The notes: generated from the letters alone by a model not told the origin. A stretch of 64,000 bases of DNA from an uncultured Deinococcales bacterium (GCA_964247135.1 CAXTTL010000001.1:37887-101886), one strand, 5' to 3'. Shown: positions 2,518-38,624, counted from the stretch's first letter. Program-made: numbers and translations.

Positions 2518-4056
2518 TCAAATCCCCCTCTTGAGGCTCTCGAGGTCGCCAACGACCTTGACGCGAATGCGGGTGGCGTTGCCGGGCAGGTAACTCAAGG
2601 GCACGTCTTCGATCTCGACGACCTCGAGCGAATCAGGTTTTGCCCCCGCAGCGACCGCCCGTTTCTTGGCTTCAATGGTGGCTTCCTCAAGCGCCGCCTC
2701 GCGGCTGATCTGCTCGAACAAATAGACTTTCTCGAGTTCGCCACTGACTTGTGCAATGGCAGCCCCAACCGCGTTGGCAGCCGCAAAATGATTTGGGCGG
2801 ATGGTCTCGAGGTCGCCCACTTTGCCGCGCACCAGTACCACGCCACCACCGACCAAAATCACTGGAATTGGGACGGCGGTCAAACGCACGCGGTCTACGG
2901 CGGCAAGAATTTTTGTTTGGATGGCGCTAACGGTGGCTTCGACCATGCTCGGCTCGAGCGTTGAAACCTTGCTCGAGTCGCCAATCTGCGCCAGTCCTGC
3001 CGCCACCGCAATGTCGGTGGCAGTCAGGGTTTGACCGCCGAACACCAAGGCTTGTTGCTCGAGTTGATAACCGACACTTTGCGGTCCGATTTCTGTGCCT
3101 TTGATAAGCGAGCCGCCCCCCAAACCGATGCTGTAAACATCGGGCATTCTGAAATTCGTGCGAACCCCGCCAACCTCGACCGCGACACCCGCCTGACGTG
3201 GGAAGCCTTGCACCAAAGCGCCAACGTCGGTGGTTGTGCCGCCAATGTCCACCACCACCGCTTCTTTGAGTTTGGATAAAAACGCCGCGCCGCGCATCGA
3301 GTTGGTTGGTCCGCTGGCAACCGTCAAAATCGGAAAGTTCTCGGCTCGAGCCGCAGGCATCAATGTGCCGTCGTTTTGGGTCAGAAAGAACGGGGCATCA
3401 ATGCCAGCTTGCTCGAGTGCATCGGCAAAAGCCTGCGCGATTTTCTTGCCCAAAGGTTGCAGCGCCGCATTCAAGATCGTGGCGTTTTCACGCTCGAGAA
3501 ACCCCACACGCCCGATAGTGTGTGACAAGGTGATTTTGGCATTGGAAACATGCTCGGCAATGATCTTGCCCGCTTGTTCCTCGAGGTCGTAATTGATGGG
3601 CGAGAATACCGAGGTGATCGCCACGCTGCTCAAACCCCTGGCGTTGATCTCCTGGGCGATGCTCGAGATTTCGTTTGGGTCAAAAATCGAAATTGGGCGA
3701 CCATCGAACTCGTTGCCGCCTTTGGCAAAAAACATGTGCTCGCCAATGCAAGCCTTTAAATCTTCAGACCAGGCGGTCATCGGCGGAATCGCCAAAGTCG
3801 CAGGTGCGCCAAGACGAATGATGGCGACCTGAGCCAGCTCGCGGCGTTGCACGATGGCATTGGTAAAATGCGTCGTGCCGATCATCACGGCATCCACGGC
3901 AGGCTTTGCGCCCTCGAACAAACTTCGCAGCGCCTCGAGCACCCCCGAGGTCACGTCCTGGGTGGTGGGGGTTTTGATGGTGCGGATGACATCAAAACCA
4001 TCCAGCAGCGCGGCATCGGTGTTGGTTCCGCCAACGTCTATCCCGACTCGAATCAT
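2518..4056 (-). CDS. Hydantoinase/oxoprolinase-family protein (HyuA-like, ASKHA fold), short form
   Basis: 512-aa ORF. The N-terminus MIRVGIDVGGTNTDAALL and a second phosphate loop VVVDIGGTTTDVG are typical of hydantoinase A/oxoprolinase-type ATPases. It is adjacent to and coupled with the DUF917 gene. Confidence 0.8.
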   Translation of the reverse strand: MIRVGIDVGGTNTDAALLDGFDVIRTIKTPTTQDVTSGVLEALRSLFEGAKPAVDAVMIGTTHFTNAIVQRRELAQVAIIRLGAPATLAIPPMTAWSEDLKACIGEHMFFAKGGNEFDGRPISIFDPNEISSIAQEINARGLSSVAITSVFSPINYDLEEQAGKIIAEHVSNAKITLSHTIGRVGFLERENATILNAALQPLGKKIAQAFADALEQAGIDAPFFLTQNDGTLMPAARAENFPILTVASGPTNSMRGAAFLSKLKEAVVVDIGGTTTDVGALVQGFPRQAGVAVEVGGVRTNFRMPDVYSIGLGGGSLIKGTEIGPQSVGYQLEQQALVFGGQTLTATDIAVAAGLAQIGDSSKVSTLEPSMVEATVSAIQTKILAAVDRVRLTAVPIPVILVGGGVVLVRGKVGDLETIRPNHFAAANAVGAAIAQVSGELEKVYLFEQISREAALEEATIEAKKRAVAAGAKPDSLEVVEIEDVPLSYLPGNATRIRVKVVGDLESLKRGI

Positions 4057-4766: not shown

Positions 4767-5156
4767 TTGAATGACACAACACTTGGTGAAACCGTGAAAG
4801 TCTTCCCACTCGAGTACCCCGAACGCCCACTGCAAGTCCTCGATCAACTCGAGCTGCCCGCCGAAGCCAGCGCTTCGTTAAGAATGGGCACCGCCAAAGT
4901 TCAAAAAGGCGATTGGATACCCCCAGCGGGATACTCGAGCCACGAGCAACACGAGGTTTCGGTGCTGTTAAAAGGACAACTCGAGATTGAGGTGGGCGGG
5001 CAAACCACCGCGCTCAAACACGGCGAGGTCGTGATGATTCCCGCCCTTGAAGCCCACCGTACCTACGCACTCGAGGATTCAGAACTGATCTGGTTCTGGT
5101 TTGGAAATGCCACAACAAGCGCCCCTGGCGCGAGCGGTAAAGGAGGAGCGGTATGA
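4767..5156 (+). CDS. Cupin domain protein (start uncertain)
   Basis: 129-aa ORF with a two-motif cupin pattern (HEQHEVSVLLKGQLEIEVGG ... GEVVMIPALEAHRTYAL). The track start is a TTG only 1-2 nt after AGGAGG, so the real start may be the internal GTG (~4794). Its stop overlaps the start of the next gene (ATGA). Confidence 0.55.
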   Translation: MNDTTLGETVKVFPLEYPERPLQVLDQLELPAEASASLRMGTAKVQKGDWIPPAGYSSHEQHEVSVLLKGQLEIEVGGQTTALKHGEVVMIPALEAHRTYALEDSELIWFWFGNATTSAPGASGKGGAV

Positions 5157-6766
5157 AGAAAGAACTGGTGGTTCTCGGGCTGTGCATGGTGGCGGCAGTC
5201 GGTATGGCGTTGACGCAATCTCTTGGACAAGGACAGCGCATCCTGCGGCTTGACAATGCCGCACCCGCCGAACTCGATCCGCACATTGGCAATGATTACT
5301 CGGCATCGGTGCTGGCGTACAACGTTTACGATACACTGGTGATGCCAGACCCAGACAACGGGGTGAAACCATCCGTTGCCACCAAATGGACCGTTTCCAA
5401 CGGCGGCAAACGTTTTACCTTCACCTTGCGTCCGAACGTTAAATTTCACGATGGCAGCACACTCGAGGCAAGCGATGTGGTTTTCAGTTACGAGCGCACC
5501 AAAGCCGTGGATCAGGGGTTTTCTTACCTCTTCCAAGGCTGGGTGACTGGCGTCAAAGCCGTCGGCAAAACGGTGGTGCAATTTGACCTTTCAGGCACGT
5601 ATGCACCCTTCCTCTCGACCTTGGTGCGCCTGCCCATCGTCAACAAAGACCTGGTGTTAAAGAACAAAAAAGACGGCAAGTTCGGCGCGAACGGCGATTA
5701 CGGACAAGCCTTCCTCTCGGGCAACGACGCGGGTTCGGGCGCATACCGCGTGACCCAACACAACCCGCAAACCCTGACGGTACTCGAGAAATTCAAAGAT
5801 TACTTCCTGGGCTTTAATCCCAAAGCCCCAGATGTCGTGCGCCAACTGTACAGCGTCGAATCTGCCACGATGCGCACCCTGATGGCACGCAAAGAACACG
5901 AAATCTCGAGCCAATGGCATCCGCAAGAAGTCCTCAAAGCCCTGGCAACTCAACCAGGCATCAGCCTGATTACCGAAGGCAGCGGCGGGTCGCTCATGTT
6001 TAAACTCAACACCCAACGCGCCCCAACCGACGACGTGAACTTCCGCAAAGCGATGGCGCTCGCCTTTGATTACAGCGAACTGGTTTCCGCATTAAAAGTC
6101 ACCGATAAAATCTCGGCAGGTGTTGCCGCTCGAGGTCCTATCGCCGCGAGCTTGCCAGGGTTTGATAAAGCTTTGGTCGCGCCAAAACGCAACTTGGATG
6201 CCGCCAAAGCCGCCCTCGCCAAATCCAAGTACGCCAACCAACTCGACAAAGCCGTGGTGGACATGGTTTGGGTCGCCGAAGCGCCGTTTGAAGAAAAAAT
6301 GGCGCTGTTGATGCAACAAAACCTGGGCGAGATTGGCATCAAAGTCAACCTCACCAAACTCCCCTGGGCAACACTCACCGAACGCTTCGTCAAAGCCGAC
6401 CAAACACCCAACACCTACCCGCTCTTCACCGGGCTTTCCTACCCAGACCCAGACGGACTCTTGTACGTGATGTACTCGAGCAAAGCCGCAGGCACCTTCT
6501 GGAGTTCGAGTTGGGTCAAAGATGCCGAGATCGACAAAGCCCTCGATGATGCCCGCCGGCTCAGCGACGTGAGCAAACGCATGGACTTGTACAAAAAAGT
6601 TCAAGAACGCCTGGTTGGAATGCAATCGGATATTTACGCCTACGACAACTTGGCGGTGTTCGCCAAACAAGATTACGTCAAAGTCCCGACGCTCGAGAAT
6701 GAAGGGCAGAGCGTGTCCACGATTGGGGCGAACTGGTTGTTCAGGTTGATTGAAGTCAACAACTGA
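5153..6766 (+). CDS. ABC transporter substrate-binding protein, family 5 (peptide/nickel/opine type)
   Basis: 537 aa with a signal peptide (MKKELVVLGLCMVAAVGMALTQS) and an AAGGAGGAG RBS. The family-5 SBP-like sequence reads LDPHIGNDYSASVLAYNVYDTLV ... FHDGSTLEASDVVFSYER. It is followed by Dpp-type permease and ATPase genes. Confidence 0.9.
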   Translation: MKKELVVLGLCMVAAVGMALTQSLGQGQRILRLDNAAPAELDPHIGNDYSASVLAYNVYDTLVMPDPDNGVKPSVATKWTVSNGGKRFTFTLRPNVKFHDGSTLEASDVVFSYERTKAVDQGFSYLFQGWVTGVKAVGKTVVQFDLSGTYAPFLSTLVRLPIVNKDLVLKNKKDGKFGANGDYGQAFLSGNDAGSGAYRVTQHNPQTLTVLEKFKDYFLGFNPKAPDVVRQLYSVESATMRTLMARKEHEISSQWHPQEVLKALATQPGISLITEGSGGSLMFKLNTQRAPTDDVNFRKAMALAFDYSELVSALKVTDKISAGVAARGPIAASLPGFDKALVAPKRNLDAAKAALAKSKYANQLDKAVVDMVWVAEAPFEEKMALLMQQNLGEIGIKVNLTKLPWATLTERFVKADQTPNTYPLFTGLSYPDPDGLLYVMYSSKAAGTFWSSSWVKDAEIDKALDDARRLSDVSKRMDLYKKVQERLVGMQSDIYAYDNLAVFAKQDYVKVPTLENEGQSVSTIGANWLFRLIEVNN

Positions 6767-6812
6767 TTGAAATGGGGTGGCTCGAGGGATTGGTTTCTCG
6801 AGCCACCTTTTG

Positions 6813-6876
6813 GGGGGCGGTGCGGTTATTGGTGGTGGGATTGTTGGCGGTGCGCTCGAGAGCGCACCCTACGGGG
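6813..6876. repeat. Left arm of RAYT unit (G/T-rich tract + REP hairpin GGTGCGCTCGAGAGCGCACC + CCTACGGGG tail)
   Basis: Read directly from the sequence. The 9-bp inverted repeat GGTGCGCTC/GAGCGCACC is centred at ~6859. The same hairpin recurs at 7743-7762, 9848-9867, 10094-10113, 13296-13315 and 13484-13503. Confidence 0.85.
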
Positions 6877-7116
6877 TGGGCGGGGCATGTGAATGGTTTT
6901 AATGTGGTTCATTCTGAATTAATAAATTGATCCCCAAAAAATACGCATACGACTCGAGATTCATGTATTCCTCGAGATTACGTCCGAGAGATTACAAAAT
7001 CACAGTTGAAGGTTTTGCTCGACTTGTAAATTTATGGATTTTCAAATTGATAAAAAAATCTATTTCGTTTCGTTCGCATTCATTCACAACGTATTACACA
7101 CATCGACCAGTCACCT

Positions 7117-7656
7117 TCATCCCACAAATTTCTCTTCAACCCTCAAACCCTCGCGCCAATCTTCTGGGTATACCCCTTGCGAAACACACCGATGAAACGT
7201 ACTCCACTCCCAATCCCTGACCTTCGAGACCAACCCATGCTTGACCGGGTTGTAATGAACGTAATCCATGCAGCGTTCAAAATTGGCATCATCCCGAACT
7301 TGATGCTCCCAAAACCGCCTCTGCCAAATGCTCGTTTCGCGTCGCGCCACCCGAGACGCGCTCAACCTCGAGTCGTTCCTGATTTCTGGCAGGGCTTTGC
7401 TGCACAATTGCTTGATCATGTTCCAACGCAAGCTGAAATTGGTGTCATCTTCGGGCAGTGTCCAAATGGTGTGCAGGTGGTCGGGCAGCAACACCCAAGC
7501 ATCAATCGTGAACGGATGATGGCTTCGGGTGCGCGTCACCGCCTCGCGCAGCGCTGCCCGAAATGCAGGCTCGAGCAAAATGGGTTGCCGTTGATGCGTG
7601 ACCACCGTGAAAAAAAACGTGCCGCCAGGGGCATTGGCGCGGCGATAATTCGGCAT
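7117..7656 (-). CDS. rayT: REP-associated tyrosine transposase (RAYT; Y1 HUH transposase, IS200/IS605 superfamily)
   Basis: The N-terminus [23 protein letters not shown] is RAYT-typical. The HUH motif is [10 protein letters not shown] and the catalytic Tyr block is [13 protein letters not shown] preferred the start at 7656 over the track start 7707. REP hairpins flank the gene in inverted orientation. Confidence 0.85.
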
Positions 7657-7733
7657 GGCTCGAGTATAAGATTTTGGGATGTTCGTGCATGTGATATATC
7701 CGCACACCGATTTCCCGCAATTTTATCCCGATC

Positions 7734-7798
7734 CCCCGTAGGGTGCGCTCTCGAGCGCACCGCCAACAATCCCACCACCAATAACCACACCGCCCCCC
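7734..7798. repeat. Right arm of RAYT unit (inverted copy of 6813-6876)
   Basis: The sequence is CCCCGTAGGGTGCGCTCTCGAGCGCACCGCCAACAATCCCACCACCAATAACCACACCGCCCCCC. It is the reverse complement of the left arm except for one position (A vs G in ...AATAACC[A/G]CACC...). Confidence 0.85.
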
Positions 7799-7892
7799 AT
7801 CTCGAGCACACCCCCAAAACATCCAATTTCCACATGTTCCCACGCTTTCAAGACCGTCAATCACCCGCATCCCCCATTCAGGTACACCCCTG

Positions 7893-8924
7893 ATGCTCAC
7901 CTTCCTGACCTACATCGCCCGTCGCCTGTTCTCCTCCATTGTCGTGCTCATCGGCGTTTCAATCCTGGTTTTCGTGATCGCTCGAGTCATCCCTGGCGAC
8001 CCCGCCCGCATCGCCCTTGGTCCAATGGCATCACAAGAATCCATCAAGAATTTGCGCTTCGAGTTGTACCTGGATCGCCCTTTGCCTTTGCAGTACCTCG
8101 AGTTTGTGCGGCGTTTACTCAAGGGTGATCTTGGCACGAGTTTGTACACGCGGCGCGCGGTCACGGCAGACCTCGAGCAGTTTTTCCCAGCCACCCTCGA
8201 GTTGGTACTGGCGAGTGGTTTGTTGATGGTGGTGTTTGGTTTGCCTTTGGGGGTGCTGGCGGCGCGGTATCGCAATCGCTTGCCCGACAACGTGGCTCGA
8301 GTCTTTGCGATTCTTGGGGTGGTCACCCCCAATTTTGTCTGGGCAATTTTTTTGATCTTGATGTTTGCCTATTGGGTGGCGATTCTGCCCGTGGCTGGGC
8401 AACAATCGGATACGTTTTTGCTGCCGAAGAAAATCACAGGTTTTTTGATGCTTGATTCGATTTTGACGGGGCAATGGGCAATGTTCTGGGATGCGCTGAG
8501 GCATTTGATCTTGCCTGCGGCGGCGCTGGCGTTTGCGGGTTTGGGGCAGACCGCACGCCTGACTCGAGCGAACATGCTCGATTCTTACGGCAAGCCTTAC
8601 ATCGAGATGGCTCGAGCTTTTGGCATCAGTGAACTCGAGATTGCCACCAAGTACGCGCTGCGTCCCGCACTCATTCCGACGCTGACCATTTTAGGGCTTG
8701 ATTTTGCCGCGATGCTTGGCGGGGCGTTTTTGGTCGAGGCGGTCTTCAACTGGCCCGGCATGGCGCGTTACGCCGTGCAAGCGATTTTGCACAAAGACCT
8801 GAACGCGATTGTCGGCACGACCCTGGTGATCGCGGTGTTCTTTTTACTGGTCAACATCGTGGTGGATTTGATCGTTGGTTACGTCAACCCTCGGATTCGT
8901 TTTCACGAGGAGGCTCGAGGATGA
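7893..8924 (+). CDS. ABC transporter permease (DppB/OppB-like)
   Basis: 343 aa and multi-TM. The N-terminus MLTFLTYIARRLFSSIVVLIGVSILVFVIARVIPGDP is typical of DppB-type permeases. Its stop overlaps the next permease start (8921). Confidence 0.9.
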   Translation: MLTFLTYIARRLFSSIVVLIGVSILVFVIARVIPGDPARIALGPMASQESIKNLRFELYLDRPLPLQYLEFVRRLLKGDLGTSLYTRRAVTADLEQFFPATLELVLASGLLMVVFGLPLGVLAARYRNRLPDNVARVFAILGVVTPNFVWAIFLILMFAYWVAILPVAGQQSDTFLLPKKITGFLMLDSILTGQWAMFWDALRHLILPAAALAFAGLGQTARLTRANMLDSYGKPYIEMARAFGISELEIATKYALRPALIPTLTILGLDFAAMLGGAFLVEAVFNWPGMARYAVQAILHKDLNAIVGTTLVIAVFFLLVNIVVDLIVGYVNPRIRFHEEARG

Positions 8925-9781
8925 CACTTTCTCCTGCCAGAATCTTTCGCTCGAGGTCTTGGTATCGCTTTTCACAAAACCCGCTGTCAGTGATCGGTTT
9001 GGGCATTGTGGTGTTGGTGGTGCTGCTGGCGATTCTTGCGCCGATCATCACGCCCTACCCGAAGCACGCGGGGCAGTTTGTGAATTTCAGTGCGGGCACT
9101 GCCGCACCGACATGGCAGTATTTGTTTGGCACGGACACCATTGGGCGTGATGTTTTGACGCGCATCATTTTTGGCTTGCGGGTCTCGCTCGCGCTTGGCG
9201 TGGTGGTCTTGGCATTGGCTGTGCCCATTGGTGTGATTCTGGGTTTGATGGCGGGTTATTTTGGGCGGCACGTCGAACTGGTCATCATGCGAATCACCGA
9301 TGTTTTTCTGGCATTGCCACCTTTGGTGCTGGCGTTGGCGGTCTTGGGGTTTCTGGAGCCAAATTTGTTTAACGCCATGATGGCGGTGACCGTGATGTGG
9401 TGGCCATGGTACACGCGATTGGTCTACAACCTCTCCCGTTCAATCCGCACCGAGGGTTTTGTCACCGCCAGCGAGGTGATGGGCGCCTCGAGATTCCATA
9501 TTTTGTTCCGCGAGATTCTGCCGAATTGCCTGCCCTCGATCTTGACCAAAATGACGCTCGACATGGGCTTTGTGATTCTGATTGGCGCGAGTTTGTCGTT
9601 TCTGGGCTTGGGTGTCCAACCGCCCACCCCAGACCTCGGTTCGATGGTCGCCGACGGCGCAAAATACCTGCCCGATGCCTGGTGGATTTCGGTCTTTCCT
9701 GGACTGGCGGTCTTGTTCTGCGTGCTCGGTTTTAATTTGCTCGGTGATGGCTTGCGCGATCTTTTGGACGTGGAGGTATGA
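8921..9781 (+). CDS. ABC transporter permease (DppC/OppC-like)
   Basis: 286 aa. The sequence reads LFGTDTIGRDVLTRIIFGLRVSL ... LPNCLPSILTKMTLDMGFVILIGASLSFLGLGVQPPTPDLG, with an EAA-type loop region. Confidence 0.9.
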   Translation: MTLSPARIFRSRSWYRFSQNPLSVIGLGIVVLVVLLAILAPIITPYPKHAGQFVNFSAGTAAPTWQYLFGTDTIGRDVLTRIIFGLRVSLALGVVVLALAVPIGVILGLMAGYFGRHVELVIMRITDVFLALPPLVLALAVLGFLEPNLFNAMMAVTVMWWPWYTRLVYNLSRSIRTEGFVTASEVMGASRFHILFREILPNCLPSILTKMTLDMGFVILIGASLSFLGLGVQPPTPDLGSMVADGAKYLPDAWWISVFPGLAVLFCVLGFNLLGDGLRDLLDVEV

Positions 9782-9835
9782 ACCACGATTTTGCCGTGTT
9801 GTGGGTTGTACAGTGCAATGTATGGCGAACCGTTC

Positions 9836-10122
9836 GGTGCGCTGTAGGGTGCGCTCAAGAGCGCACCGCATTGACACCCCATCCCTCGAGATTAAAACCC
9901 GCAACCCATGATTTTGTTATTACCAAAATTAACGTTTATATCATTCGTTTCTCGAGATTGAAAAACATTGCTGGTGGTTTTTTTGTTGCCAAAATGAATG
10001 TTTGCACAATGTGTTTCTCGAGATTCAAAAACATTTTTTGTGGTTTTTTTGATGGGTTGGGGTGGTGCGCTCGGGGTTGGTGGGTTTGTGGGCGGTGCGC
10101 TCGAGAGCGCACCCTACGGGTG
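9836..10122. mobile_element. REPIN/MITE-like non-autonomous element A (two inverted REP hairpins enclosing ~2.5 AT-rich tandem modules)
   Basis: The terminal hairpins are 9848-9867 (GGTGCGCTCAAGAGCGCACC) and 10094-10113 (GGTGCGCTCGAGAGCGCACC), in opposite orientation. The right arm carries a G/T-rich tract like the RAYT arms. Internal tandem modules at 9916-9984 and 9985-10050 are ~66-69 bp and ~75-80% identical by eye, each with TTTCTCGAGATT[G/C]AAAAACATT. The element lies between permease 2 and ATPase 1. Confidence 0.75.
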
Positions 10123-10130
10123 AATTATTT

Positions 10131-11105
10131 ATGACAACGCCTCTCTTAAAAATCACCGATCTCCATTTGCGATTTAAACTCTTCGAGGGGGTTTCGCACG
10201 TGCTGGCGGGGGTCAACCTCGAGGTGCATCGCGGGGAACGGGTTGCGATTGTGGGCGAGTCGGGTTGCGGGAAATCTGTGACGTTGCGTTTGATTTTGGG
10301 TTTGTTGCGCGGCAAGAACATCATGGTTTCGGGCACAATCGAATTTGATGACCTCGAGATCAATGCTGCCAGCGATCAGAAATTGCGTGAGATTCGTGGG
10401 CGGCGCATTGGTACGATTTTTCAAGACCCAATGGCTTCGCTCAATCCAACCTTTACGATTCTCGATCAGATGGGTGCGGTGATCCGACGTGGAGAGCCGA
10501 AAATTTCTCGAGTTGCTTTGCTCGAGAAAGCAAAGCACGCGCTTTCTCAGGTGGCGATCAATGATCCTTTGCGAGTGCTCGAGGCGTATCCGTTTCAACT
10601 TTCGGGCGGCTTAAATCAGCGCGTCTTGATTGCGATGGCGCTGCTCAACGAACCCGAGTTGGTACTGGCGGACGAACCAGGCACGGCGCTCGATGTCACG
10701 GTGCAAGAGCAAACCTTGCGTTTGATGCGAGAATTGACGCAGAACCTGAATTCGGCGGTGCTCTTGATTACCCACAACCTCGGCGTGGTGCGCGAGTTTG
10801 CGGATCGGGTCTATGTGATGTACGCCGGCAGCGTGGTCGAGGAAGCCAGAACCACTGAACTCTTCGCCAATCCCAAGCATCCGTACACGCGGGCGTTGCT
10901 CGAGAGTGTGCCGAAATTGACGGGCACCAATTTGCCGCAGGGGATCGATGGTTTTGTGCCCGATTACACCAAGCCTCCTTTGGGTTGTCGCTTTCATCCG
11001 CGTTGCGCTCAGGCGACCCAAGCCTGCCAGACCTTGCCGCCTTTGCTCGAGGTGGCGCAAGGTCACAAGGTTGCCTGTGTGCTTTACGAGGGGGCGGCTG
11101 CATGA
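10131..11105 (+). CDS. ABC transporter ATP-binding protein (DppD/OppD-like)
   Basis: Walker A is GESGCGKS, the signature is LSGGLNQRV, Walker B is LVLADEPGTALD, and the oligopeptide-type C-terminal region is HPYTRALLESVP. The start is at ATG 10131 (MTTPLLKITDL). The longer track ORF from 10062 reads through the REP hairpin. Confidence 0.9.
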   Translation: MTTPLLKITDLHLRFKLFEGVSHVLAGVNLEVHRGERVAIVGESGCGKSVTLRLILGLLRGKNIMVSGTIEFDDLEINAASDQKLREIRGRRIGTIFQDPMASLNPTFTILDQMGAVIRRGEPKISRVALLEKAKHALSQVAINDPLRVLEAYPFQLSGGLNQRVLIAMALLNEPELVLADEPGTALDVTVQEQTLRLMRELTQNLNSAVLLITHNLGVVREFADRVYVMYAGSVVEEARTTELFANPKHPYTRALLESVPKLTGTNLPQGIDGFVPDYTKPPLGCRFHPRCAQATQACQTLPPLLEVAQGHKVACVLYEGAAA

Positions 11106-13287: not shown

Positions 13288-13507
13288 ACCCGTAGGGTGC
13301 GCTCTCGAGCGCACCGCCCACAAACCCACCCATCTCGAGCGCACCCCCACACCCCCCAACCCCAACAAAAAAATCACACAAAATGCTTTTGAACCTCGAG
13401 AAACGAATGATGTAAATGTTGTGTTTGGCAACAAAAAAATCATGGGCAATGCTTTTGAACCTCGAGCAATGTGATGCCAATGTGGTGCGCTCAAGAGCGC
13501 ACCCTAC
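13288..13507. mobile_element. REPIN/MITE-like non-autonomous element B (inverted copy of the element A family)
   Basis: The terminal hairpins are 13296-13315 (GGTGCGCTCTCGAGCGCACC) and 13484-13503 (GGTGCGCTCAAGAGCGCACC). The C-rich arm is CCGCCCACAAACCCACCC...CCCCCCAACCCC. Internal modules read AAAAAAATCA..AATGCTTTTGAACCTCGAG (x2). The sequence aligns to the reverse complement of element A. The element lies between the M24 peptidase and hyuA. Confidence 0.75.
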
Positions 13508-38542: not shown

Positions 38543-38607
38543 AGTTTTTCACCAGCACATCACCGAGACGTTCAGCATGGAATTAGACACTGCTCGAGTT
38601 CGGGTAG

Positions 38608-38624
38608 GGTGCGCCATGCGCACC
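38608..38624. repeat. REP-variant hairpin (GGTGCGC-CAT-GCGCACC) with CGGGTAG prefix
   Basis: It lies 66 nt after the stop of the giant gene. The stem is the same as in the RAYT-associated REPs but the loop is shorter. Confidence 0.55.

Follow-up and report, generated by a model that had tools for sequence, protein, structure and literature searches.

Most REPs (repetitive extragenic palindromic sequences) are defined by a 5′ GTAG head, which is bound base-specifically by the transposase TnpAREP and is needed for cleavage (PMC3479197, PMC8266576, PMC3733652). TnpAREP, one of the REP-associated tyrosine transposases (RAYTs), cuts single-stranded REP DNA in a Mn2+-dependent manner at a CT near the REP (PMC3479197, PMC8266576). 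REPs in which GTAG is followed by a perfect short palindrome have been characterized in vitro (PMC8266576, PMC3479197); the REPSm of Stenotrophomonas maltophilia has an 8-bp stem and a 3-nt loop (PMC8266576). Here we analyze a RAYT gene and its REPs in 64,000 nt of DNA from an uncultured Deinococcales bacterium (GCA_964247135.1, CAXTTL010000001.1:37887-101886), a stretch referred to below as the window. We consider it highly probable that the unit at 6811-7799 of the window is a REPtron, that is, a domesticated and vertically inherited RAYT together with its cognate REPs. Its parts are as follows.

6811..6876, minus strand: left (RAYT-distal) arm, an extended REP; read on the minus strand, GTAG at 6872-6869, hairpin at 6868-6849, then a C/A-rich tract
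6877..7116, no strand assigned: spacer from the left arm to the stop codon of the RAYT gene; non-coding and AT-rich (GC 0.37 vs 0.54 for the window)
7117..7656, minus strand: RAYT gene (TnpAREP-type HUH/Y1 transposase), 179 aa from ATG; HUH motif H60-L-H62, catalytic Tyr Y132
7657..7733, minus strand: RAYT upstream region; -10-like TATACT at 7668-7663 on the minus strand, 6 nt from the ATG, without a Shine-Dalgarno sequence
7734..7799, plus strand: right (RAYT-proximal) arm, an extended REP; GTAG at 7738-7741, hairpin at 7742-7761, then a C/A-rich tract

A first-pass annotation of the window had described a 179-aa open reading frame (ORF) with an HUH and a Tyr motif at this place and called it a RAYT, and both motifs can be read directly from the translation. 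The call also held against a RAYT-specific profile hidden Markov model: the ORF scored 196.9 bits with NCBIfam NF047646 (REP_Tyr_transpos, an equivalog model with a cut-off of 80 bits), covering positions 1-146 of the 146 in the profile. With the generic Pfam Y1_Tnp model it scored 21.8 bits, just below the gathering threshold of 23. When solved structures were searched with the protein, the sole match was E. coli TnpAREP bound to REP (PDB 4ER8; E = 5e-41), with 44% identity over residues 1-167, end to end. In this alignment H60-L-H62 falls on H-M-H of the E. coli protein and D131-Y132 on its D114-Y115, and Tyr132 lies in a conserved DY..NPV context; an insertion of 16-17 residues, at about residues 88-104 of the window protein, is not in the E. 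coli protein. Judged by its sequence, the ORF is a RAYT, presumably an active enzyme, and the automatic NCBI annotation pipeline (PGAP) would already name the gene correctly. A database look-up returned no exact record of the 179-aa protein. The nearest RAYT proteins are metagenomic, and named homologues, mostly from Betaproteobacteria, are at most ~62% identical. The 64-kb window contains a single RAYT copy (next tblastn match, E = 0.16), and searches of plasmid and phage collections gave no match.

An inverted-repeat search returned one pair, 6811-6876 and 7734-7799, 66 nt long and 98% complementary with one mismatch, much as the earlier estimate of ~65-nt arms had it. The REP in each arm reads 5′-GTAG-G-GTGCGCTC-NN-GAGCGCAC-C, followed by a C/A-rich tract of ~40 nt, and GTAGGGTGCGCTCNNGAGCGCACC designates the REPs of this family. 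The stem is a perfect 8-9-bp palindrome; the hairpin GGTGCGCTCNNGAGCGCACC, folded as single-stranded DNA, has a stem of 8 bp closed by a loop of 4 nt, at -10.1 kcal/mol (z about -3.4). The window has six copies of it, where 100 shuffles predict 0.00, and all six canonical copies have GTAG on exactly one side, as do 41 of the 43 copies from the window and related loci taken together (the two exceptions are degenerate). The CCTACGGGG tail described earlier in each arm is present in the sequence; read on the other strand, it is the canonical GTAG found at the 5′ side of a REP. In an alignment of the arms with two other window elements (A and B, below) and with REPs of relatives, the core GGCGGTGCGCTC..GAGCGCACCCTAC was invariant and the adjoining G/T-rich tract was conserved in character. 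The two window arms differ from each other at 1 of 66 positions, and their identity with the arms that bound elements A and B is only ~85-95%. Rfam returned no family within 6500-10300 at E ≤ 1 and none in the whole window at gathering scores.

The window contains seven REPs where about 0-1 would be expected. The first-pass annotation had counted five besides the two arms; four canonical hairpins stand (9848, 10094, 13296 and 13484), and a fifth is reached only if a short variant at 38604 is included. The canonical hairpins belong to two composite doublets.

9844..10117, no strand assigned: element A, composite REP doublet between permease 2 and ATPase 1; GTAG heads outward, AT-rich interior
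13292..13507, no strand assigned: element B, composite REP doublet between the M24 peptidase and hydantoinase genes; GTAG heads outward
38604..38624, plus strand: solitary short REP variant GTAG-GGTGCGC-CAT-GCGCACC, found through the head motif GTAGGGTGCGC (GTAGGGTGCGC-CAT-GCGCACC)

The interiors of both elements are built from a unit of ~66 nt, and the two elements are 77-81% identical to each other, in opposite orientation. Element A contains, at 9909-10054, a tandem duplication of a 66-69-nt AT-rich unit (TTTCTCGAGATT(G/C)AAAAACATT...). Related loci L107 and L004 have an element orthologous to the window's A; the latter is longer by one internal unit, and only one such unit is found in the L107 copy. 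Element B is not in the corresponding 55-nt spacer of the closest relative, L107, a difference that, in this sequence comparison, is consistent with fairly recent mobility or deletion; which REP copies may be mobile now, we infer. The short variant is similar to the REP that flanks a 61%-identical RAYT in L103.

The same REP accompanies related RAYTs. Three metagenomic contigs, L003, L001 and L002, encode RAYTs that are 91%, 80% and 77% identical to that of the window, and RAYTs at 69% (L104/L105) and 80% (L106) identity are found with the same REP in other contexts. An identical REP flanks both sides of the gene in the relatives that are at least 69% identical (L001, L002, L003, L104 and L106), and at 61% identity, in L103, the REP is diverged and shorter. 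Because relatives at or above 69% carry the identical REP on both sides, the window RAYT is taken as the cognate RAYT of this REP family, in agreement with the proposal that it is the resident one. In a genome-collection scan, the 24-nt REP GTAGGGTGCGCTC-NN-GAGCGCACC was found in at least 16 copies on 13 contigs of a fragmentary related metagenome-assembled genome (MAG), JANOWZ01. When metagenomes were scanned with the RAYT protein, all of the relatives returned were 50-60% identical, and the hairpin was found at 0 of these 80 loci.

The exact 24-nt REP also occurs once or twice in each of L005, L007, L015, L019 and L021, which are MAG contigs of Anaerolineae, Chloroflexia, Massilia and an unclassified bacterium. 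These copies mostly have a GT/AC loop, no RAYT lies within the fetched stretches, and the contigs lack the CTCGAG excess described below. Convergence, horizontal transfer or mis-binning may each account for these REPs.

Inverted REPs lie on both sides of the RAYT in the window, L001, L002, L103, L104 and L106. In the latter five the unit is compact, consisting of GTAG-REP, 30-45 nt, TACACTCGAGCC-ATG, the gene to its stop codon and REP-CTAC, with GTAG heads directed outward. The window and L003 have the upstream REP inverted, with GTAG heads directed inward towards the gene, and additional sequence on both sides. Part of this addition is the spacer 6877-7116, which is 69% identical over 166 nt to L003 2907-3069, downstream of the L003 RAYT; the 240-bp spacer looks like what is left of an older foreign insert that L003 shares.

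A further shared feature is found immediately upstream of the gene. The motif TA(C/T)ACTCGAG(C/A)C directly precedes the RAYT ATG in 6 of 7 related loci, whose RAYTs are 61-91% identical and lie in differing genomic contexts.

TA(C/T)ACTCGAG(C/A)C sites: window 7657-7668 (minus strand); L001 2683-2694; L002 2123-2134; L003 2304-2315; L103 2974-2985; L106 474-485

Because TA(C/T)ACT is conserved, lies 6 nt from the ATG and is not accompanied by a Shine-Dalgarno sequence, the motif suggests that the hexamer is a promoter element and that the RAYT mRNA may be leaderless. Leaderless mRNAs are abundant in Deinococcus.

The position of the gene is also conserved. In L003, L001 and L002, the RAYT is antisense between orthologous genes for a solute-binding protein (SBP) and the first permease (perm1) of a transporter operon. 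Synonymous divergence (dS) from the window was 0.61 for RAYT and 0.81 for perm1 in L003, 1.04 and 1.31 in L001, and 1.00 and 1.29 in L002. The ratio of nonsynonymous to synonymous divergence (dN/dS) was 0.09-0.14 for RAYT over dS values of 0.6-1.4 and 0.08-0.16 for perm1, each against four relatives, and 0.08-0.10 for SBP. Since the dS of RAYT tracks that of its neighbors and its dN/dS is low, RAYT has co-diverged with the neighboring genes under purifying selection. Domesticated RAYTs show the same pattern in the work of Bertels and Rainey on RAYTs and REP doublets forming hairpins (REPINs).

Not all relatives have kept the gene. The closest relative by SBP (96% identical), L107/L108 (NCBI GCA_965189485.1), has no intact RAYT: its junction consists of the SBP hairpin, an apparent decayed left arm, a 150-aa ORF and a RAYT 3′ remnant of ~80 nt, which aligns with window 7170-7246 in the same orientation and abuts the permease start. 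About 75% of the RAYT gene has been deleted there. In JANOWZ01, labeled "Deinococcales bacterium" (SBP 87-89% identical), the junction reads REP, 124-aa ORF, REP, short-chain dehydrogenase/reductase (SDR) gene, and no RAYT is present at this SBP-permease junction. At greater distance, L109 (a "Meiothermus sp." MAG, SBP 72%) and L110/L111 (SBP 76%) have other ORFs at the junction and neither RAYT nor REP. The unit had been described as inserted into the operon; the same antisense position in relatives at 77-91% identity and the remnant in the closest one make it a long-standing resident instead. We conclude that the RAYT was already in the SBP-permease spacer before L001, L002 and L003 parted from the window lineage, and that some sister lineages later deleted or replaced it.

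Each version of the junction has a different AT-rich insert beside the REPs. Five were compared: an IS200 tnpA in L001, the 124-aa ORF in JANOWZ01, the 150-aa ORF (26% GC) in L107, small ORFs in L003 and the 240-bp remnant in the window. The L001 insert (3261-3828) encodes an IS200-type TnpA of 170 aa that scores 148.9 bits with Pfam Y1_Tnp, has 43% GC in a 63% GC contig and is wedged between two REPs beside the RAYT. Because only 10-22 nt separate this gene from the hairpins, the REPs in L001 may serve as ends or target of the IS200-type TnpA. The 150-aa ORF beside the RAYT remnant (L107 5645-6097, L108 4428-4880) has a signal-peptide-like N-terminus and no Pfam match. The JANOWZ01 junction spans L012 347-789 and L004 1-689, two contigs that overlap within the SDR gene; its 124-aa ORF has 43% GC and no Pfam match, and the SDR gene then runs into the permease gene.

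The surrounding operon had been recognized as an ABC transporter operon in which SBP ends at 6766 and the first permease gene begins at 7893, and these coordinates are correct. By Pfam it is of the Dpp/Opp type, with SBP_bac_5, two BPD_transp_1 permeases and two ABC_tran+oligo_HPY ATPases.

5153..6766, plus strand: SBP gene, SBP_bac_5 (Pfam, 218 bits); orthologues 72-96% identical in relatives
6775..6811, plus strand: hairpin after the SBP stop codon, 15 bp, then TTTT
7893..8924, plus strand: permease gene, BPD_transp_1 (Pfam)
8921..9781, plus strand: permease gene, BPD_transp_1 (Pfam)

The RAYT (minus strand) therefore lies between SBP and permease genes that are both on the plus strand, with its right arm between the divergent RAYT and permease starts, and the question raised earlier of how the downstream genes are transcribed is legitimate. 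The hairpin at 6775-6811 looks like a terminator or a 3′-end stabilizer: the RNA fold of 6767-6885 has 15 stacked pairs (z = -5.25), and a hairpin of other sequence follows SBP at the same place in L001, L002, L012 and L107. A consensus terminator scan did not call this hairpin because its T-run is only 4 long. A sigma-70 promoter scan of 6600-8000, which includes the interval between RAYT and permease, returned no site, and thus no internal permease promoter can be proposed. In L001 and L002 the permease start codon is 2-5 nt from the REP head. Every RAYT-carrying lineage has intact permease and ATPase genes that evolve under purifying selection; therefore the arrangement is compatible with function, and we infer that these genes are expressed through read-through or from an unrecognized internal promoter. 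REPs reportedly stabilize the upstream mRNA in the malE-malF spacer of E. coli (work of Higgins and Newbury). By analogy, an attractive model would combine read-through with REP-mediated 3′-end stabilization of the SBP message. Stabilization of upstream mRNA by REPs is mentioned, at second hand, in PMC4942690.

There are several other ways in which the unit could be read. It could be an autonomous, recently inserted element resembling an insertion sequence (IS), a "TIRtron" or an IS with 66-nt terminal inverted repeats (TIRs), that entered the operon by transposition of the whole unit. The near-perfect 66-nt repeats favor such an element, as do related RAYTs that share its REP-promoter-gene-REP arrangement but lie in unrelated contexts (L103, L104, L106) and the RAYT-like genes flanked by long TIRs described by Di Nocera et al. 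We nevertheless consider it quite improbable: three relatives have the orthologous gene at the same junction with dS matching that of its neighbors, the closest relative has a remnant there (with an apparent decayed left arm at the same site in L107), the arm ends show no target-site duplication, the window holds no second copy, no plasmid or phage matched, and the arms are members of the REP family rather than unrelated TIRs. Two narrower candidates were rejected, namely (i) a recent insertion with target-site duplication, on account of the lack of direct repeats at the arm ends and the conserved position in relatives, and (ii) a classic IS200/IS605 element, on account of the Y1_Tnp score, the inverted hairpins and the single copy in the window. 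Alternatively, the hairpins could primarily be operon RNA elements, intercistronic terminators or 3′-end stabilizers that set SBP:permease:ATPase ratios, with the link to RAYT secondary. In support of this, REPs occupy three successive intercistronic spacers of one co-directional ~12-kb cluster, the window, L107, L004, L001 and L002 all have the doublet at the junction of permease 2 with ATPase, every relative has a strong hairpin that is not a REP after its SBP gene, and mRNA stabilization of the malE-malF kind is established. Such a role could be an added one, but as the identity of the hairpins it is very improbable, since many unrelated contigs of JANOWZ01 carry this GTAG-REP, which also flanks RAYTs in other contexts, and element B is dispensable in L107. 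Finally, the RAYT could be an inactive relic nearing loss and the window REPs fossils, given that ~75% of the gene is already deleted in the closest relative, that JANOWZ01 has another ORF at the junction and that elements A and B are only 77-81% identical. We find this barely credible for a gene whose ORF is intact with HUH and Tyr preserved, whose dN/dS is low over the whole range of dS and whose -10-like element at the start codon is conserved; in addition, the two arms and four REP cores are sequence-perfect, and element B is polymorphic for presence and absence.

The REPtron reading, which we prefer, has its own difficulties. It does not directly explain why the two arms are 98% identical; we think gene conversion from one arm to the other, or recent turnover of the REPs, the likeliest cause, rather than a recent insertion of the whole unit. 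The orientation of the GTAG heads is inward in the window and L003 and outward in five relatives. RAYTs at 61-80% identity (L103, L104, L106) have the same internal layout in other genomic contexts, and so the REPtron either once moved as a unit or exists as paralogues. The Y1_Tnp score is a formal miss, although this is usual for RAYTs as opposed to true IS200 transposases and is expected. If the REPtron behaves as E. coli and S. maltophilia TnpAREP do, the RAYT would bind the folded single-stranded REP through the 5′ GTAG head and the 8-9-bp perfect hairpin and would cleave nearby through Tyr132, which would disperse REP doublets such as elements A and B. By the same analogy it would not copy its own gene. 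The 66-nt arms are extended REPs of the same family.

A more speculative idea, which we think unlikely, is that the REP-bounded SBP-permease spacer is a recurrent gene-capture slot in which RAYT-made single-strand breaks and strand transfers at REPs exchange cargo. This would explain why five lineages have mutually unrelated AT-rich inserts beside REPs at one junction. If this idea were correct, a pair of REPs would be an integron-like site of recombination and not only a selfish repeat.

Incidental to the RAYT, the most surprising observation in the window is an excess of CTCGAG (the XhoI site). It occurs 385 times in 64 kb against ~16 expected, a ~25-fold excess (6 per kb), and is evenly spread. 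In coding DNA it is found in all three frames (34/9/11), with CTC-GAG, Leu-Glu, favored; 58% of TCGA tetramers lie inside CTCGAG. Orthologues have CTCGAG in common at homologous positions with 2-3 times the frequency expected from their nucleotide identity. We surveyed the window, L001-L003, L103, L106-L108 and MAG contigs L004, L006, L008-L014, L016-L018, L020 and L022. The density was 4.5-7.8 per kb in every close relative, ~3 per kb in the "Meiothermus sp." MAG and ~1 per kb in L110, and ~0-0.4 per kb in MAG contigs that have the REP but are otherwise unrelated (those of Anaerolineae, Chloroflexia and Massilia, and that of one uncultured bacterium). The excess is similar to that of the cyanobacterial HIP1 (highly iterated palindrome, GCGATCGC), and no report of CTCGAG hyper-abundance was found in the literature searched. 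Other 6-bp palindromes are nearly absent from the window (CTGCAG 0, GAGCTC 0, CTTAAG 0, CCCGGG 1, GTCGAC 1 and TTCGAA 1, with ~16 of each expected). Alongside the CTCGAG excess, these counts suggest that restriction-modification systems drive a strong avoidance of such palindromes. The loop dinucleotide of the REPs is TT/AA in nearly all relatives and differs from this in 4 of the 6 canonical window REPs.

Hairpin tips containing CTCGAG: 6855-6860; 7749-7754; 10100-10105; 13303-13308

Since the loop change creates CTCGAG in these four, the CTCGAG-enriching process seems to act on REPs too.

The locus leaves current understanding unchanged, and it adds an uncultured lineage labeled Deinococcales to the range of REPIN-RAYT biology, which is well studied but mostly in Proteobacteria. 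One orthologous operon junction here offers a natural series for RAYT persistence and loss, with the gene intact, rearranged, truncated or replaced. The REPtron is also placed exactly where classical intercistronic REPs tune the expression of ABC operons, and is therefore convenient for testing the influence of REPs and an antisense RAYT on SBP:permease stoichiometry.

Among described systems, the E. coli K-12 REPtron (tnpAREP/yafM with bacterial interspersed mosaic elements, BIMEs; RAYT Group 2; 4ER8) resembles the window unit in the full-length homology of the protein, with HUH and Tyr aligned, in the bracketing of the gene by inverted REPs and in the 5′ GTAG head. The E. coli REPs differ in having imperfect stems with a bulge needed for binding (PMC3479197, PMC8266576), whereas the window stem is a perfect palindrome and lacks the conserved mismatches or bulge that are a Group 2 trait. 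In addition, E. coli has BIME arrays where each window arm is a single 66-nt extended REP, and only the window protein has the 16-17-residue insertion. In REP style the window is closer to the Group 3 REPtrons of S. maltophilia K279a and Marinomonas sp. MWYL1 (PMC8266576), in which a short perfect palindrome comes right after GTAG. The catalytic Tyr is also near position 130 in both (Y130 of TnpASm, Y132 here). This likeness is one of REP style, and the window host is not a Proteobacterium but belongs to an uncultured lineage of Deinococcota type.

Features that the window shares with the REPIN-RAYT systems of Pseudomonas and Neisseria (Bertels and Rainey) are a RAYT, found once in these 64 kb, whose extragenic location is conserved, a low dN/dS, inverted REP doublets and loss of the RAYT in some lineages. 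Compared with those REPINs, the window doublets are long composites of 216-274 bp with an AT-rich interior that contains a tandem repeat; tight doublets with ~15-nt spacers are found in relatives L002, L008 and L022. With IS200/IS605 elements (TnpA_IS200) the window RAYT has in common the HUH/Y1 fold and chemistry and sub-terminal hairpins recognized with a 5′ tetranucleotide guide, but its Y1_Tnp score of 21.8 bits contrasts with the 148.9 bits of the true IS200 TnpA in L001, its hairpins have inverted instead of direct orientation, and the window has a single copy. A parallel in placement is offered by the ABC-transporter operons malEFG of E. coli and hisJQMP of Salmonella, in which REP hairpins occupy exactly the interval that separates the binding-protein gene from the first permease gene; those spacers contain REPs only, whereas the spacer described here adds an antisense RAYT gene.

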